Notes under the pieces: generated by a model | Database searches by the model: none | What the model saw: only the letters and a program-made list of their open reading frames with translations | Told to the model about the DNA's origin: nothing | Made by a program: the position numbers and the translations under genes | In this document: in pieces, positions 6,373 to 13,656 of the stretch | Position numbering within the stretch: position 1 is the first letter of the stretch | How the letters are laid out: the number at the start of each line of letters is the position of its first letter | NCBI GenBank assembly: GCA_009995385.1 | Contig: JAACPT010000004.1 | Location: 1-45,210, forward strand | Direction of reading: 5' to 3' | DNA: 45,210 nt | Origin: Candidatus Parcubacteria bacterium | GTDB taxonomy: Bacteria > Patescibacteriota > Minisyncoccia > Phycocordibacterales > UBA918

Positions 6373-6858
6373 ATGGATTTCGGTACTATTGTAAACTTCA
6401 TCTACGGATTTTCCTTCCTCCTTGGGGTGTTTGGATTTTTTCTAGTATTTGCAATCTTTAAAGGAAGACAATCAATTATAAATGTGACCATAGGAATTTA
6501 TTTGGCTCTTTTGATTAACAATTATTTTCCTGGGTATGAATCACTGTTCACTTCCTTCACAACGACTCACTCTGTCATCATTGCTAAATTATGTTTCTTT
6601 GCGCTGGTAACCATTTTTACTACTGCGCTGTGCTACCAAATAATGCCGAGAGAATATCGCGAAGAGCGCTTTGAAAGCATTGTAAAAAAAGTGTTTCTTG
6701 CGCTGGGAGCCACTATTACAGTGATTGCAATCTGCTTCCAAATTTTTACAATCGGTGACCTTCTTAACACTGACACTCTATTGCAATTCCTCTTCGGACC
6801 AGAACCATACTTTTTTTGGTGGCTGACAATTCCACTGGTTATTATGTATATTGTGTAA
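6373..6858 (+). CDS. Hypothetical multi-pass membrane protein
   Basis: 161 aa ORF with about 5 hydrophobic segments; TATAAT 9 nt upstream. Confidence 0.75.
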   Translation: MDFGTIVNFIYGFSFLLGVFGFFLVFAIFKGRQSIINVTIGIYLALLINNYFPGYESLFTSFTTTHSVIIAKLCFFALVTIFTTALCYQIMPREYREERFESIVKKVFLALGATITVIAICFQIFTIGDLLNTDTLLQFLFGPEPYFFWWLTIPLVIMYIV

Positions 6859-6862
6859 ATCT

Positions 6863-7771
6863 ATGTCTGCATATATTTTAGCAGGAATTGCCGCCTTTCT
6901 ATGGTCTATTGTAAACGTCGTAGATAAGGCACTTATAGAGCGTTTCTGTAAAAACGGAGACACTGGTGCACTTCTTATACTTTCATCGCTATTTCCAGTT
7001 ACGCTCCTTCCTGTCGCTTACTATTTTGCCGAAGGGTCACTGATTCTACCAGTTAGCGATATTCTGATATTAATCCTAACAGGAGTACTTATGGTAGGCT
7101 GGATTGCTGTCTATCTAAATACACTCGTTGATGAGGATGTATCCATCGTCGCACCACTAATGCAACTTACTCCTGTCTTTGCGTTTGTTCTTGCATTCTT
7201 GATTTTAGGGGAGTTGCCGAGTAACACAAAATTACTCGCAGGACTAGTCATTATCATTGGTTCAATCGTCTTATCATTCGAACATACCACTGGCAAATTA
7301 AAAATTACGCTACTTTTTTCAATGTTGAGCGTGTCAGCAATCATCGCCCTTATCAACGTACTATTTAAATTTGTCACGGTAGAAGAAAGTTTTTGGTTGA
7401 GCATGTTTTGGCATGCTCTTGGTATTGTAGTGACTGGCTTCATACTATATATATTTCATAGCAGTTACCGACAACAGTTTCACCGCTTCACAAAAGATAA
7501 TTGGGGAATAGGAATAGGTCTTAATGGAGCAAATGAAACATTAACCATAGCCGGTGATATTTTGTTTGCATACGCAATTCTTCTTGCACCACTCGCATTA
7601 GTACAAACAATGGAAGCCTATCAGCCTCTATTTGTTTTTATCATTAGTTATTTCATTACTCGTTTTGCACCTACCATATTAAGCGAAGATATCTCAAAAT
7701 CTGCCTTAATTCAGAAGGGTGTTGGGATTTTATTGGTTGTTTTGGGAAGTATCTGGTTGCTAACTAGTTAA
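6863..7771 (+). CDS. EamA/DMT family transporter
   Basis: About 10 TM segments in two repeats; SIVAPLMQLTPVFAFVLAFLILGE is a typical EamA motif. Confidence 0.9.
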   Translation: MSAYILAGIAAFLWSIVNVVDKALIERFCKNGDTGALLILSSLFPVTLLPVAYYFAEGSLILPVSDILILILTGVLMVGWIAVYLNTLVDEDVSIVAPLMQLTPVFAFVLAFLILGELPSNTKLLAGLVIIIGSIVLSFEHTTGKLKITLLFSMLSVSAIIALINVLFKFVTVEESFWLSMFWHALGIVVTGFILYIFHSSYRQQFHRFTKDNWGIGIGLNGANETLTIAGDILFAYAILLAPLALVQTMEAYQPLFVFIISYFITRFAPTILSEDISKSALIQKGVGILLVVLGSIWLLTS

Positions 7772-7798
7772 AATAGCTATATTCTAAATTTAAACTCC

Positions 7799-9106
7799 AT
7801 GCGAATACTTTTTATTTCCAAAGAATTGATTGGTGGTTCCGTACTTCAAGCGCTCATTTCTGAGGGAAACGATGTTAAGGTATATATTGAAAACATCGAC
7901 TGGAAATCATGTCTTGACGGCATAGCTCATAAAATAGATGCCTGGGAACCAGAACTTAGTTGGGTCGGTAAAAGTGGTCTCATCGTTTTTGATGACGTCG
8001 GCTGGAATAACACCCAAGATGTACTGCGAAGAGAAGGATACAGCGTCTTTGGGGGAAATATGGAAAGTGACGCATTAGAACTTAACCGACAACACTTTCA
8101 AGATGTACTCAGTGCAAGTGGAGTTAAAATTCTTCCCTAATATGACTTCACAACCGCAGAAGAGGCAATTACTTTTGTGAACGAACAACCTGGAATATGG
8201 GTAGTGAAACAGAACAGTCATATTGGCATGCTCAACTACGTCGGTCAAAGAGATGACTCCAAGGACGTCATAGATGTCTTAGAAATGTACAAGGAAAAGA
8301 ATATATCACCGGTGCACTTACAGAAAAGAGCCCGTGGATATGAAATGGGCGTGGCACGTTATTTTAATGGTAGCGACTGGGTGGGACCAATTGAGGTGAA
8401 TCTCGAATACAAGTCTCTTTGTAACGGTGATATTGGACCACTTACCGCGGAAATGGGCACAGTCATGTGGTACGACACTAATGAGGAAATGCTTTTATAC
8501 AAGTCTACTCTCGCTAAACTGAAGGATTATCTGGCAAAGATTAATTACAAAGGTGATATTGATATCAATTGTATAGTAAACGCTGAAGGTGCTTGGCCAC
8601 TCGAAGCAACCATGCGTTTCGGAACACCTTCAACTGAACTTCAGTGCGACTTACACAAATCACCCTGGAGTGACTTTCTAAAAGCGATAGCTGATGGAAA
8701 GCAATACTCCCTTGATTATCATTCGGGGTACGGGATTGTAGTTTCGGTTGCAACACCACCGTTTCCGTACGCACCAGAAGTATTTGGTGAGTCAAGAACT
8801 GGTACAAGCATGAATAACCGCATTCTCTTTACAGAAGATCTTACTGAACGCGAACAGTCACAAATACGTTTTATGGAAGTATCTGCTACTATAAGTAAGA
8901 CTGGTCAAAAGCAGTTTCACCTCGCAGGTGAACATGGATATGCACTATATGTAACTGGCTTGGGTGAATCAATCAGTCAAGCAAAGGAGGAAGCTTATAC
9001 TGTAGTGCGAAAGATAATTATTCCACGTATGTTCTATCGGACAGATATAGGAGATACATTTATAAATGGGGGTATGGAGACAATTAAAAACTGGGGATGG
9101 ATTTAA
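7799..9106 (+). pseudogene. PurD-like (GAR synthetase family) ATP-grasp ligase interrupted by one in-frame TAA at 8138-8140
   Basis: ORFs 7799-8140 and 8177-9106 share a frame (ILP*YDFTTAEEAITFVNE). Motifs: LELNR..FQ, GDIGPLTAEMG, LEATMRFGTP, MFYRTDIG. Confidence 0.8.
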
Positions 9107-9138
9107 TCTTCTCACAGTGGATTCTAAACAAAAATATT

Positions 9139-10209
9139 ATGTACCACAACAAAGGACCACAGACAGAATACAATCCACTCAAAAAGGTTATCCTTGGTAG
9201 GTTGGACGTCGGTAATAAATTTCCTAAGAATGATTTGGGCATGCTCGCAATGATTGCAGCTGACCAAAAAATCTATACACCTAACGAGACACTAGATCTT
9301 GAAAAAACAAAGCTACTTGTACCCGAAATAACAGAGATAATTCAAAAAACGACTGAAAAAGAATTGAATGAATTAAAAGAAATATTTCTTTCAAGAGAAA
9401 TTGAGGTCGTTCGTCCCGATGTCGTAAGCTCAGAGCATATGGTTACGACACCAAATTTTACTATCAATCAATACCCTGTCTATTGCCCACGAGATATACT
9501 ATTCCATTTTAGAGACCTGACAATCATCAGTCCAAATGTGTATCAGTCTCGAAACAATGAAGCTATATACTATGCATCTATTCTGAGTGCCGAACAAAAT
9601 GATAGCCGGAGTGTCATTCACGCACCAAGACCTCGTTTGCGAGAAGTCGACTTCAATTTAAGTTCAGATGGTCTAAGTATTTTAAGCACTGAGGACCCTG
9701 TTTTTGAGGCAGCTAACACGTTAATTGATGGGGAACACAATGCCATTTATTATCAGATTTCACATAGTGGAAACTCGAATGGCTATCATTGGCTAAAAAA
9801 TTTAATTGCGATGATTTATCCAGAAGTTGTAGTGTATCCACTTTATGTTTATGATGGTATGCATATTGACACCACTATCGCTATCTTAAACTATGATACG
9901 GTTGCATTAAATCCTGAACGAGTTACCGACATATCAATACTCCCAGAGCCACTTAAAAATCGAAGACACATTTTTCCTGACATAATCGATAATCGCAACG
10001 AGAACGGACTTTCCTCAAAGTGGATTGGGATGAATTCATTATCATTGAGTCCTAAAGAAATCATCGTCGATGCTTCGCAAGAGAGGTATATTTCACAGCT
10101 TACCGAAATTGGGATGGATGTGATTCCTCACCTATTAACATACAGTGACGTTATCGAAGGAGGACATCACTGCACCACCTCCGACCTTAGACGATCAGAA
10201 TCTTATTAA
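9139..10209 (+). CDS. Amidinotransferase (AGAT/StrB1-like, pentein superfamily)
   Basis: EYNPLKKVILG N-terminus, CPRD, PVFEAAN, MHIDTT, WIGMNSLSL, GGHHCTTSDLRR. Confidence 0.88.
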   Translation: MYHNKGPQTEYNPLKKVILGRLDVGNKFPKNDLGMLAMIAADQKIYTPNETLDLEKTKLLVPEITEIIQKTTEKELNELKEIFLSREIEVVRPDVVSSEHMVTTPNFTINQYPVYCPRDILFHFRDLTIISPNVYQSRNNEAIYYASILSAEQNDSRSVIHAPRPRLREVDFNLSSDGLSILSTEDPVFEAANTLIDGEHNAIYYQISHSGNSNGYHWLKNLIAMIYPEVVVYPLYVYDGMHIDTTIAILNYDTVALNPERVTDISILPEPLKNRRHIFPDIIDNRNENGLSSKWIGMNSLSLSPKEIIVDASQERYISQLTEIGMDVIPHLLTYSDVIEGGHHCTTSDLRRSESY

Positions 10210-10218
10210 TCATTACAC

Positions 10219-11568
10219 ATGAACAAATTACCGAGAGGATTTTCATTGAGAGACAACACGCTATGGTTCAGAGGTATTGATATCTTAAGATTAGTTAATG
10301 CTCACCAATCTCCACTGAGAATTAATTTCCCAGAGCTTTTGATTGAAAACTATACCTTTTTGACAAAAACAGTGCAGGAGGTACTGAAGAGTCAAGAATT
10401 GTCTGAAAATAAATTTCTTTGCGGATACGCAATTAAAGCTAACCAAAACTATGATCTGGTCGTGAACGCAGCCAAGCACACTTCTTTCCTCGAAGTTTCT
10501 TCAAAAAACGATCTCGATATAATCGAGCAAGTAAAAACAGAGTTAGGTTCGAAGATGATCATTTGTCACGGCTTCAAGCCAGCAAGCACTTCGTATTTTA
10601 AAAAGATAGTTGCGATGCATAAAAAAGGATTCACGATCATCCCTGTAATTAATTCAGTTACTGAATTATATGATTTTGGTTCTCTTGACCTAAAAATGTC
10701 TATCGGTGTACGCATAAGTGCAAAGGTGTCATTTGGAGGCTCAAAATTACCCGATCGATTTGGATTGACGCTGCATGAGATTCAACAACACTTTGCATAC
10801 CTTACACAACACAAGACTCTTTCTCTAACAATGCTACACATGCACGTAGCTAATACAATCAGCGATATTCCTCAGAGAATACAGGATTTCGATGACCTAT
10901 TCACAGTATATGAAATGATGATTAAAGCAGAAATGAAAATCAACTATATCTGCACCGGTGGTGGGTTACCAGAACGTTCGTACACTCCAGATTACTTTTA
11001 CACTGAATACTATCAAAAGCTTATCTTTCGCATAAATCAACTGACTACAGCTGAGTACTTTCCAATATTATTAAGTGAAAGTGGGAGATTCTTGGCAACT
11101 GAAACACAATTCGTTGTTTTGAAAGTGATAGCAGAAAAAAATAGCAACGATGATTTTTCTTGGTATGTTCTAAATGGTAGTGCTATAAATCTGATTCCTG
11201 AAACAGTACTTGATGGTAACAAACACTTTCCCATACTTCCAGTAAATTTTATTGACAGACCAAGCAAGACTGTCATATGTTCGGGTGCAACTTGTGACCA
11301 AGCAGATTTTTTTCACACTCAAAAAATAAACCTACCACAAATCGATAAGAATGACAGTTTGTTTGTAACAATACCTGGGACTGGAGCTTATCAAGAAAGT
11401 CTACTTGGTTCATCAAGAAATACCCCAGGTCATTGTTTGATTGAAGCAACAAACGAATTAACAATTACCGCTTCCGGCATATGTTCGAGAACGACAAAAA
11501 ATGATTTCCTACAAACACTTGGATATACTAAACAAAAAAGTTTTTTTAAGTGGCTATTCTCTCGATAG
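10219..11568 (+). CDS. speA: PLP fold-type III basic amino acid decarboxylase, most like short arginine decarboxylases
   Basis: YAIKAN (PLP Lys), DRFG, HMH, GGGL, ESGR, TCDQAD, TGAYQE...HCLI. Confidence 0.75.
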   Translation: MNKLPRGFSLRDNTLWFRGIDILRLVNAHQSPLRINFPELLIENYTFLTKTVQEVLKSQELSENKFLCGYAIKANQNYDLVVNAAKHTSFLEVSSKNDLDIIEQVKTELGSKMIICHGFKPASTSYFKKIVAMHKKGFTIIPVINSVTELYDFGSLDLKMSIGVRISAKVSFGGSKLPDRFGLTLHEIQQHFAYLTQHKTLSLTMLHMHVANTISDIPQRIQDFDDLFTVYEMMIKAEMKINYICTGGGLPERSYTPDYFYTEYYQKLIFRINQLTTAEYFPILLSESGRFLATETQFVVLKVIAEKNSNDDFSWYVLNGSAINLIPETVLDGNKHFPILPVNFIDRPSKTVICSGATCDQADFFHTQKINLPQIDKNDSLFVTIPGTGAYQESLLGSSRNTPGHCLIEATNELTITASGICSRTTKNDFLQTLGYTKQKSFFKWLFSR

Positions 11569-11638: not shown

Positions 11639-11983
11639 ATGCACTTTCAAAATCATATTCTCGTTTATGTACTACTACCTCTATTGGTACTAACCATAGG
11701 AGCTACTTTTTATCGTGCTGTTATCCTTCATGATTACAATGTTTCGTACGAAGGATCTTGTGATTCAGTAGTAGAAAGCTGCTTTGTCGGATGTGAAGAC
11801 GATGAATGTACACAAGAATATTTCTACACAATCATAAAACGATATGCACCCAATCTTATTGCTAACTGTGGCGACAATATGGGCAACTGCGAAGCAGCGA
11901 ACATCTGTCCACTCGATGAGACTGATTGTGAGATAACCTTTTGTGACCCAAATTTAGATATAAGAATGTGCGACACCATATGA
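11639..11983 (+). CDS. Membrane-anchored Cys-rich small protein
   Basis: N-terminal TM helix, then 10 Cys in about 75 aa; ATGA overlap with the downstream kinase. Confidence 0.8.
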   Translation: MHFQNHILVYVLLPLLVLTIGATFYRAVILHDYNVSYEGSCDSVVESCFVGCEDDECTQEYFYTIIKRYAPNLIANCGDNMGNCEAANICPLDETDCEITFCDPNLDIRMCDTI

Positions 11984-13656
11984 ACTGCTATTTATATTCC
12001 GATCCGCAATATCTCTTCTATATTCCGGATCTTCCAGATTTACTTTACTACTCACACATCCCAACAACGGTCATTGCTTTACTTGTTGGACTCTTTGTTT
12101 TTCTCAACGCCCGCCATCTTTTATTGAACCGATTATTATTACTCATTGCAGTAAGCTTTTCTCTTTGGACTCTTCTCAGTCTCATTGCCTGGACAAACAA
12201 CCATGGTGATATTCTTTTAGCTATTTGGCCTTTCTTTGGAGTACTTCAAGCGTTCATATCAATACTATGCATCTATTTTATTTTTGTGTTCCTAGACAAA
12301 AAAGATGTCTCAGTTAAATTAAAGGCGCTATTTACAGTCCTATTAATTCCAGTATTACTATTTGCTCCCACGGACCTTAGTGTCAGTGGATTTAACATAA
12401 CAAATTGTGATGCTTTTGAATTTGAGGGTTTGATCTATAAGCTCTATTATAACTTGCTTGGTGTACTAGCGATGATTTGGATATGTATCCTCCTAATAAA
12501 ACAATACCGATTGGCAGATAAGAAATTCAAGAAGCAGATACTTTTGATGGGAATCGGATTAGAGCTTTTTCTCTTTATGTTCTTCTCAACAACATTTCTA
12601 TTTTCTTATCTAGCAGGATTAGGAATTCTTGAAGATACACGATACGAATTATATGGACTTTTCGGAATGGATATCTTTATGATTTTCATAAGCATTCTTA
12701 TTGTTCGCTTTAAAACATTTAACGTTGGGGTGGTTGCTTCGCAAGCACTAGTAGTTGCGATAATAATTTTGATAGGTTCACAATTCACTTTTAATGAAAG
12801 TCAAATCTCCACTATTCTTACTTCTATAACATTGGTGCTTACTGGTTTTATCGGCATCATGCTTATACGAAATGTAAGAAAAGAAGTAAAGCAACGAGAG
12901 GAAATTCAATCGCTTGCTGCATCGCTGGCAAGTGCAAACGAGAAACTGATGGAGCTTGATAAGCTTAAGTCAGAATTCGTTTCCATCGCGTCGCACCAGC
13001 TGCGCGCTCCGCTCACCGCCATTCGTGGCTACGCATCTATGTTGCTCGATGGTAGCTATGGAAAAATTCCGGTTCACGCTAATGAAGCACTTACCCGTAT
13101 TGAAGAGTCTTCAAAATACATGACATATTCGGTAGAGGATTATCTTAGCGTTTCTCGTATTGAGTCAGGAAACATGAAGTACAGTAATAGTGATTTCAAC
13201 TTGCGCGATAAAGTCGAACAGATTTGTGACGATCTTCGTCCGCAAGCAATCCGTAAGGGTCTAATGCTACTGTTCCGCACCAATCTTAAAAGCCAAGGTA
13301 TCATCAATGCTGATATTGGTAAGACTATCCAAATCATTCAAAACCTCCTTAACAACTCTATAAAATACACTCCGAAAGGAAGTGTGAAAATTTTGGTCCG
13401 TGATGATGTCGTACGAAAGCGCATTTACATCGATATTGAAGATACTGGTATCGGCATGAACGAAGACATTAAGAATCGCTTATTCAATAAATTTGAACGT
13501 GCCAGCAATGCTAATTCCGTAAATCACAGAGGAACGGGTCTTGGGCTCTACGTCGCCTACCAAATGGCAAAAGCTATGAACGGGGATATTACAGCTTATT
13601 CTGAAGGCGATGGAAAGGGCTCACGTTTCACTATTGAATTTAAATTAGCTCTATAA
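11980..13656 (+). CDS. Multi-TM sensor histidine kinase (HisKA + HATPase_c)
   Basis: Multi-pass N-terminus; H-box SHQLRAPL, N-box NLLNNSIKY, DTGIG, GTGLGL. Confidence 0.95.
   Translation: MNCYLYSDPQYLFYIPDLPDLLYYSHIPTTVIALLVGLFVFLNARHLLLNRLLLLIAVSFSLWTLLSLIAWTNNHGDILLAIWPFFGVLQAFISILCIYFIFVFLDKKDVSVKLKALFTVLLIPVLLFAPTDLSVSGFNITNCDAFEFEGLIYKLYYNLLGVLAMIWICILLIKQYRLADKKFKKQILLMGIGLELFLFMFFSTTFLFSYLAGLGILEDTRYELYGLFGMDIFMIFISILIVRFKTFNVGVVASQALVVAIIILIGSQFTFNESQISTILTSITLVLTGFIGIMLIRNVRKEVKQREEIQSLAASLASANEKLMELDKLKSEFVSIASHQLRAPLTAIRGYASMLLDGSYGKIPVHANEALTRIEESSKYMTYSVEDYLSVSRIESGNMKYSNSDFNLRDKVEQICDDLRPQAIRKGLMLLFRTNLKSQGIINADIGKTIQIIQNLLNNSIKYTPKGSVKILVRDDVVRKRIYIDIEDTGIGMNEDIKNRLFNKFERASNANSVNHRGTGLGLYVAYQMAKAMNGDITAYSEGDGKGSRFTIEFKLAL

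Follow-up and report, generated by a model that had tools for sequence, protein, structure and literature searches.

The window analysed here, a stretch of 45,210 nucleotides (nt) from contig JAACPT010000004.1 of a Candidatus Parcubacteria bacterium from groundwater (assembly GCA_009995385.1), contains four neighbouring genes encoding an EamA permease, a PurD-fold ATP-grasp ligase, an amidinotransferase (AT) and a pyridoxal phosphate (PLP)-dependent decarboxylase (DC). The original prediction had described them as one operon for the synthesis and export of a guanidino or polyamine amide, with guanidinoacetyl-agmatine and arcaine as possible products and the host or competitors as possible targets. 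The co-orientation and close spacing of the genes are borne out by the coordinates of the open reading frames (ORFs), with gaps of 27, 32 and 9 nt between permease, ligase, AT and DC, and the predicted enzyme classes by family and structure matches. In this group two units have come together at a hot spot, by chance or by selection; it is not a conserved four-gene pathway.

On the 5' side the group is preceded by dnaK, dnaJ, yigZ (UPF0029) and a gene for a membrane protein of 161 amino acids (aa), and on the 3' side it is followed by a gene for a Cys-rich protein, a histidine kinase gene and trpS. The flanks yigZ and trpS had been named correctly, and the 161-aa, Cys-rich and kinase genes also lie between them. 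The description of the host as similar to the candidate phyla radiation (CPR) fits the small size of the genome (723 kb in 46 contigs, 92% complete; relatives 0.5–1.7 Mb) and the Patescibacteria names borne by homologues. The region from 9.1 to 11.6 kb had been thought to be rich in A and T. This is real but modest, DC with a GC content of 0.364 and AT with 0.384 lying at the 1.6th and the 4.6th percentile of the 439 ORFs of at least 200 aa, and it is not limited to this region. The genes for EamA (0.384) and the kinase (0.383; whole genome 0.433) are as low in GC as AT, and therefore there is no sharp island signal. A terminator scan of the + strand found none between the four genes; the scan was uninformative.

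Table 1. Genes of the locus, with positions in the window
Feature	Position	Strand	Remark
EamA/DMT permease	6863..7771	+	ATG start within ORF 6851-7771
PurD-fold ATP-grasp ligase	7799..9106	+	435 codons, interrupted by TAA 8138-8140
StrB1-like amidinotransferase (AT)	9139..10209	+	longer ORF 9097-10209; pentein fold
Fold-type III PLP decarboxylase (DC)	10219..11568	+	compact SpeA-related form, 449 aa
161-aa membrane protein	6373..6858	+	no family; upstream edge of variable island
114-aa Cys-rich protein	11639..11983	+	no family match; hydrophobic N-terminus (by eye), Cys-rich tail
Membrane histidine kinase	11968..13656	+	HisKA + HATPase_c; downstream edge of island

Enzymes and permease of the locus

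The AT gene likely starts at the ATG given in Table 1, which agrees with the 356-aa form in the database and with the alignment of the homologues. No Pfam match was obtained up to an E value of 10, and the sole NCBIfam match was dimethylargininase with 18.4 bits against a cut-off of 300. The solved amidinotransferases matched the protein over its full length (residues 9–353 of 356) with E values of 2e-37 to 2e-16, among them StrB1 (PDB 1bwd; 2e-37), HsvA (2e-23), SxtG (1e-19) and AGAT (9e-18). According to a review (PMC12371840), C362 of SxtG is catalytic, and D209, D131 and H258 belong to its hydrogen-bond network. The active site was mapped onto AT by way of the alignment with 6u1r, whose chain numbering is offset by 6. 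As in StrB1, AGAT, SxtG and HsvA, the catalytic Cys (GGHHC), the His (MHIDTT) and the first Asp (CPRD) are retained. Unlike these enzymes, AT stays under every curated model, has Glu for the second Asp, and has no aminocyclitol pathway in sight. AT is predicted to transfer arginine's amidino group to an amine. Ten close homologues with 58–64% identity were found among 5.8 billion proteins.

DC belongs to the ornithine/diaminopimelate/arginine decarboxylase family (PF02784, 67.2 bits against 23.4; PF00278, 29.5 bits against 23). Its nearest named relatives are of the SpeA type (PDB 3n2o), to which it can be aligned in the PLP-binding barrel and in the lysine motif (AIKANQ in DC, PIKVNQ in SpeA). 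DC differs from SpeA in its length (449 aa versus about 640), in lacking the SpeA-specific domains PF17810 and PF17944, which the SpeA-type relatives carry, and in its scores below the NCBIfam cut-offs: the biosynthetic arginine decarboxylase (ADC) models gave 106 bits against 369 and 96 against 624, and LysA gave 98.7 against 297.9. The clade of DC has seven homologues with 40–46% identity in the same 5.8 billion proteins, and outside it all homologues found are SpeA-type arginine decarboxylases (22–29% identity). The nearest named Atlas clusters, which serve as a lead only, are compact proteins named 'arginine decarboxylase'. From these comparisons DC is probably an arginine, possibly an ornithine, decarboxylase.

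The permease is recognised by Pfam EamA over residues 2–138 (46.4 bits against a cut-off of 28.2); a second repeat was not reported by Pfam. The host genome contains one more EamA gene elsewhere, two in all, and the EamA proteins of relatives are only 25–32% identical to the permease of the window. The permease is predicted to carry a precursor or the product of the pathway.

The ligase and its interrupted reading frame

Pfam recognises GARS_C in the ligase just at the threshold (34.9 bits against a cut-off of 34.8), and GARS_A with 21.7 bits stays under its cut-off of 27. PurD structures match the ligase sequence with an E value of 2e-11. The structure predicted for an intact homologue with 68% identity (P0067; pLDDT 92.6) was compared with solved structures, and 14 PurD entries matched with TM scores of 0.72–0.80 and E values of 1e-27 to 5e-32 at 17–22% identity; biotin carboxylases came next after these glycinamide ribonucleotide (GAR) synthetases. 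The ligase thus shares fold and domain order with PurD (TIGR00877; PDB 2yw2, 1gso) and presumably its ATP-dependent acyl-phosphate chemistry.

With PurD as the nearest family and fold, the ligase could be taken for a true GAR synthetase of purine biosynthesis, and PurD-like proteins of Patescibacteria are often annotated automatically as phosphoribosylamine–glycine ligase. However, the ligase read through its stop codon reaches only 90.7 bits in the purD equivalog model TIGR00877, whose cut-off is 288 (63 bits for the C-terminal piece), and the identity to the solved PurD proteins is low. It had been claimed that no other purine genes are nearby, and this holds for the whole 92%-complete genome, in which purF and purM had no match (controls positive in 14/14) and no purD scored above the cut-off. 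The neighbours of the ligase are permeases, decarboxylases and kinases instead of pur genes. We give practically no credence to a true GAR synthetase; the ligase is probably an amide-forming enzyme that acts on an amine.

The interruption of the ligase frame had been noticed before and was confirmed as a single TAA at codon 114. The frame is otherwise open, and the residues invariant in the family are kept. For comparison Logan contigs were used from four other runs, none of them flagged as a possible source of the window, which carry four study codes and are 2017 aquifer metagenomes, possibly from one campaign. In all four (one contig each, depth 4.1–6.6) position 8139 is a C, giving TCA (Ser), and Ser stands at this alignment column in 22 of 30 ligase homologues. 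Since 4/4 other runs read TCA, the ligase is intact in near-identical sister populations. The TAA of the window represents an allele of the strain or else an error of assembly. Recoding of TAA was ruled out, as the ligase gene itself terminates on TAA.

The in-frame stop could also be read as a sign that the locus is decaying, with the ligase a pseudogene in the window strain and AT, DC and the permease acting alone. The serine codon in the other runs and the preservation of the remaining frame with its invariant residues speak against decay, and the stop may be an assembly or sequencing error. We consider decay improbable.

Gene neighbourhoods in other Patescibacteria

The search for ligase homologues yielded 1079 proteins, the best 120 of which have 48–68% identity and about 430 aa. 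Gene contexts were collected for the best 80 of 201 relatives in species-representative genomes and for four loci from relatives, 84 loci altogether. Neighbours within four genes were clustered without prior labels, and phmmer with a reference set provided a second count. A histidine kinase was found in 59/84 loci, an EamA-like permease in 52 and a small Cys-rich protein in 43 (42 by phmmer). Less frequent were response regulators (22/84), proteins of the SpeD/AdoMet_dc family (21/84), an unknown 228-aa family (13/84), GNAT proteins (10/84), and methyltransferases and SET proteins (4–7 of 84 each). By phmmer, pyruvoyl ArgDC was found once and arginase-family proteins three times; the latter count was taken from phmmer, as the cluster labels for three-locus ties are unreliable. 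The window holds all four parts of this widespread module, namely the PurD-fold ligase, EamA, the Cys-rich protein and a seven-transmembrane (7TM) kinase. The Cys-rich family usually stands directly upstream of the kinase in the ligase loci, and in the window the tail of its gene overlaps the kinase start by 16 nt; the Cys-rich protein may be a partner of the sensor kinase rather than of the enzymes.

None of the 84 ligase loci contained an AT of either lineage, a PLP DC or a DUF2156 protein by phmmer. The view of the four genes as one operon is not upheld by this count. The original prediction had proposed to look for co-localisation of the four families elsewhere and had named its absence as a refutation, and 0/84 comes close to that outcome. 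The broader theme of amine or guanidino chemistry beside a permease fared better: 22/84 ligase loci have a decarboxylase nearby and 52/84 an EamA-like permease, and it is the particular operon that is not conserved. Other members of the genus carry a second, AGAT/HsvA-type amidinotransferase beside EamA at the same site.

Among 400 genomes drawn evenly from the phylum, a remote ligase subfamily with 34–43% identity was found in 18 genomes and was left out of the neighbour statistics. Its contexts are mixed, with tRNA synthetases, SAM synthetase twice, SpeD once and EamA once. In three related genomes (L030, L033, L035) the remote ligase adjoins genes for prolyl- and arginyl-tRNA synthetases and GIY-YIG nucleases. 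At locus L045 two tandem PurD-like ligases of this kind (34–35% identity) stand by a FemAB-like GNAT protein (Acetyltransf_6) and a methyltransferase.

For AT and DC two contexts are known, the window and the metagenome locus L008. The two genes are adjacent in both, with a 9-nt gap in the window and a 17-nt overlap in L008. The flanks of L008 are those of the window, dnaK-dnaJ-yigZ-161 aa on one side and Cys-rich-kinase-trpS on the other, including a Cys-rich homologue and a kinase orthologue that also matches HisKA_7TM. Between them lie EamA on the opposite strand, a 306-aa DUF2156/LPG_synthase_C protein at the place of the ligase, AT (58% identity) and DC (41%). In addition, the longest contigs of four AT-clade and four DC-clade proteins are of equal size (13040, 3692, 97020 and 285091), which suggests that AT and DC are on shared contigs, whether or not they are adjacent there. 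AT and DC are a rare cassette travelling apart from the ligase, and the locus is a mosaic of two units. The earlier assumption that the pair is tied to the ligase is not supported: it moves separately, and in L008 the DUF2156 gene stands where the ligase would. By the reference set, no relatives of decarboxylase, ligase or EamA were found near the distant AT loci L009-L011, L013 and L014 (29–40% identity). A scan of the genome contigs with the AT alignment gave 25 pattern matches, none of which was confirmed as a relative.

Of the 80 other genomes from this genus, 68 contain the 161-aa gene, whose product has only sub-threshold Pfam matches; it always precedes a variable site. Using it as a marker we read the interval up to the kinase at 47 sites, which comprise 40 marker-bearing genomes of the genus, five other genus loci, the window and L008. 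The interval between marker and kinase is a hypervariable polyamine island, and in three of the sites it is empty. EamA permeases were found in 27/47 sites (28 if a weak Pfam match in L127 is counted), SpeD-family decarboxylases in 13, pyruvoyl ArgDC in one and PLP DC in two. The ligase and the DUF2156 (LPG_synthase_C-like) protein occupy six sites each and never occur together. A decarboxylase is present in 10 of the 12 sites with either of them and in 6 of the 35 others, a contrast that is suggestive, as it comes from related genomes and carries no statistical test. AGAT/HsvA-type amidinotransferases (E 1e-104 to AGAT and HsvA) were found in 4/47 sites and the StrB1-like AT in two, and all six sites keep EamA within the island. 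Spermidine synthase occurs twice and a deoxyhypusine-synthase-like gene once; GNAT proteins, NNMT-like methyltransferases, peptidases and an IS200 transposase were seen in single sites.

Further families share the island. The DUF2156/LPG_synthase_C soluble protein (PDB 2hqy, E 5e-16; L008:9023-9943, L128, L131, L135, L136, L150) is accompanied by a decarboxylase in five of its six sites; a paper linking DUF2156 with polyamines was not found in a literature search that left most subscription journals outside its coverage. A 270-aa family with no Pfam match stands beside EamA and the Cys-rich protein in 12/47 sites (e.g. L145:1846-2697). Its structural model (pLDDT 90) had no clear Foldseek match, and with VIA-align, BshC (Z 8.4) and class I lysyl-tRNA synthetase (Z 8.3) were matched at a borderline level only; within the island, the family may represent a third type of amino-acid-ligating enzyme. 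A SET-domain protein together with an unknown 220-aa family occupies about nine of the 47 sites (L138, L141, L149, L160, L162, L166 and others), mostly without EamA. At L127:1501-2550, in the closest relative by the marker, the island has genes for a homologue of SpeD, a protein of the deoxyhypusine synthase family (302 bits) and a permease similar to EamA, which looks like a homospermidine route, and the island of L028 includes SpeE.

These counts bear on two other functions of the permease. First, EamA could be an importer of S-adenosylmethionine (SAM) or another cofactor and stand outside the pathway, as DMT-family SAM carriers exist in Rickettsia and Chlamydia. SAM synthetase was not found in the 92%-complete genome, though SAM-dependent enzymes are expected; the cell may import SAM, and the islands of relatives are rich in SAM-using genes (SET, NNMT-like and other methyltransferases, radical SAM, SpeE). 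An identity of 25–32% between the permease of the window and those of relatives would however be unusually low if it were a housekeeping importer, the genome has another EamA gene elsewhere, and 6/6 AT-bearing sites retain EamA in the island. We assign little probability to a cofactor importer. Second, DC and EamA could serve energy or pH homeostasis in the manner of AdiA/AdiC, the decarboxylase consuming a proton and EamA swapping arginine for agmatine. No pairing is more frequent in the island than that of a permease with an amino-acid decarboxylase (EamA 27/47, decarboxylase 16/47), and the genome is very small. Such an exchange would leave AT and the ligase unexplained, many sites have EamA but no decarboxylase, and the precursor/product antiporters known so far come from different families of transporters. 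It appears very unlikely to us.

A proposed arginine-derived pathway and its relation to known systems

What the genes are, which catalytic residues they retain, their descent as a mosaic and the statistics of their contexts are established here; for a possible pathway we infer the substrates, the sequence of reactions and whether transport is outward or inward. Unit 1, consisting of ligase, EamA, Cys-rich protein and 7TM kinase, would usually be paired elsewhere with a pyruvoyl amino-acid decarboxylase; in the window unit 2, AT and DC, would supply the amine. DC would convert arginine to agmatine, or the ornithine released by AT to putrescine, and AT would use arginine to amidinate a primary amine of the pathway. 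Because the acceptor of AT would be an amine made within the pathway, arginine alone would suffice as input and would lead to agmatine or to a diamine carrying two amidino groups; 2 Arg, for instance, would give arcaine, ornithine and CO2. At the expense of ATP the ligase would then link a carboxylate, probably that of an amino acid, with a free amine on the product. As it acts only on a free amine, its likelier partner is agmatine, or an aminoacyl group that is later amidinated by AT. The permease would either export the product or import a precursor. That the ligase module acts on an amine derived by decarboxylation is best argued from the three unrelated types of decarboxylase which, in different genomes, fill the slot beside the ligase. 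We are evenly balanced about this reading, in which the locus is a variant of an amine-tailoring island that joins two units and combines synthesis of an arginine-derived guanidino amine with amide ligation and transport.

The metabolic context was searched in the 92%-complete genome. No match was found to agmatinase, agmatine deiminase (PAD_porph), CN-hydrolase, carbamoyltransferase or carbamate kinase, nor to SpeE, SpeD or homospermidine synthase. With none of these breakdown and polyamine genes matched, agmatine would be left without an ordinary onward route, although at 92% completeness the absence of the genes is not proof. Two ways of using agmatine, the deiminase-based energy pathway and AIH/NCPAH, were considered and dropped, since PAD_porph, CN_hydrolase, carbamoyltransferase and carbamate kinase were unmatched in this genome.

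The same absences allow a different explanation, namely that two unrelated units are juxtaposed. Amidino transfer is reversible, and the AT–DC pair could be a self-contained polyamine supply in which DC makes agmatine and AT shifts its amidino group to ornithine or another acceptor, giving putrescine and arginine. AT would then replace agmatinase, and ligase and permease would be a separate matter; for agmatinase, agmatine deiminase and CN-hydrolase no match was found in the genome. This explanation draws on the AT–DC pair without ligase in L008, on the 84 ligase loci that hold neither AT nor PLP DC, and on the plain polyamine genes in the island elsewhere (SpeE in L028, the deoxyhypusine-synthase-like gene in L127). 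On the other hand, the genome yielded no SpeE, SpeD or homospermidine synthase that could use the putrescine, a single ornithine decarboxylase, as the relatives have, would be simpler, and in both known contexts the AT–DC pair has EamA and a putative amide-forming enzyme beside it. We judge a separate polyamine supply to be unlikely.

Several observations weigh against the joint pathway of amidino transfer, decarboxylation and amide ligation. The ligase copy in the window is interrupted, and the specificity of DC is unsettled, the ADC and LysA models scoring alike. AT has a Glu (PVFEAAN; E204 of the 370-aa ORF) where SxtG (D209), StrB1 and HsvA have Asp; Glu is found at this place in 11 of 12 AT-clade members, and Cys-His-Glu is the hydrolase-type arrangement in the superfamily. 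The combination of the four families is unique to the window, and because 0/84 ligase loci hold AT or PLP DC, it is adjacency that links the ligase with AT and DC in a shared pathway. Any decarboxylase at all is nearby in only 22/84 ligase loci. The hot spot also holds unrelated genes (IS200 transposase, peptidases, aldehyde dehydrogenase), so neighbours need not cooperate, and the counts overstate the support, as related genomes are not independent. RNA evidence is absent, none of the 24 runs listed for the stretch being RNA, and a promoter scan was uninformative, with 24 promoter-like sites against 23.5 expected from shuffled sequences.

For the joint pathway the nearest known system by analogy is phevamine, which is a nearer precedent for the combination of amidinotransferase and ATP-grasp enzyme than the pheganomycin pathway suggested by the original prediction. 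In the phevamine pathway (PMC6187163), HsvA amidinates spermidine, after which Val and Phe are added by the ATP-grasp enzymes HsvC and HsvB, and the product is an amidino-polyamine amide that leaves the cell. As in hsvABC of Pseudomonas syringae and Erwinia amylovora, an arginine-dependent amidinotransferase and an ATP-grasp enzyme are encoded together in the window, where they are adjacent with a gap of 32 nt. The window differs from hsvABC in that its AT is nearer to StrB1 (2e-37) than to HsvA (2e-23), in having one PurD-fold ligase instead of two ATP-grasp enzymes, in its own decarboxylase and DMT permease, in the CPR host, and in a gene set that is not conserved as a unit (0/84 other ligase loci).

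The polyamine clusters of CPR bacteria are the second system for comparison. Li et al. (2023, PMC10407285) showed that SpeD homologues often act as pyruvoyl-dependent decarboxylases of ornithine or arginine; the homologue from a Ca. Kaiserbacteria aquifer metagenome-assembled genome is an ornithine decarboxylase (kcat/Km 1100 M-1 s-1), and horizontal transfer of such genes among CPR bacteria is argued. Relatives of the window have SpeD homologues at this same island; the window itself has a PLP-dependent, SpeA-related decarboxylase and an amidinotransferase, and ATP-grasp and EamA proteins are not mentioned in that paper. By analogy, the locus would combine amidino-amine tailoring as in phevamine with the polyamine clusters of CPR bacteria in a new variant. 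Searches of the literature, in which most subscription journals were outside the coverage, found no paper linking Patescibacteria with amidinotransferases and none on arcaine together with an amidinotransferase; for ATP-grasp, polyamine and Patescibacteria, and for PurD and Patescibacteria, only seemingly unrelated papers came up, judged by title and beginning of the abstract.

A wider reading of the island, which we put forward as a tentative and rather doubtful one, is that strains shuffle genes around one DMT permease and that each strain exports its own guanidino- or polyamine-amide for hosts or rivals. The interchangeable parts would be the decarboxylases (SpeD-derived, pyruvoyl ArgDC and PLP SpeA-like), two AT lineages, transferases for aminopropyl, aminobutyl, N-methyl and N-acetyl groups, and up to three candidate amide-forming enzymes (the PurD-fold ATP-grasp ligase, the DUF2156 transferase-like protein and the protein with a fold like class I tRNA synthetase or BshC). 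The window would then be the arginine-only guanidino version.

The general view is that CPR bacteria synthesise very little of what they need. If the proposed pathway is true, a strain-variable locus that spends arginine and ATP on a cationic molecule would be a rare lead to the interaction of an episymbiont with its host. The AT–DC pair suggests an arginine-only route to agmatine-type or diguanidino amines in a genome in which agmatinase and agmatine deiminase were not found. The larger interest lies in the diversifying island itself and in the large orphan PurD-like family of Patescibacteria, which gains a candidate role in amide ligation onto polyamine-type amines. If the wider reading of the island is true as well, these ultra-small bacteria would possess a diversifying locus for cationic amine conjugates beside a membrane sensor kinase.

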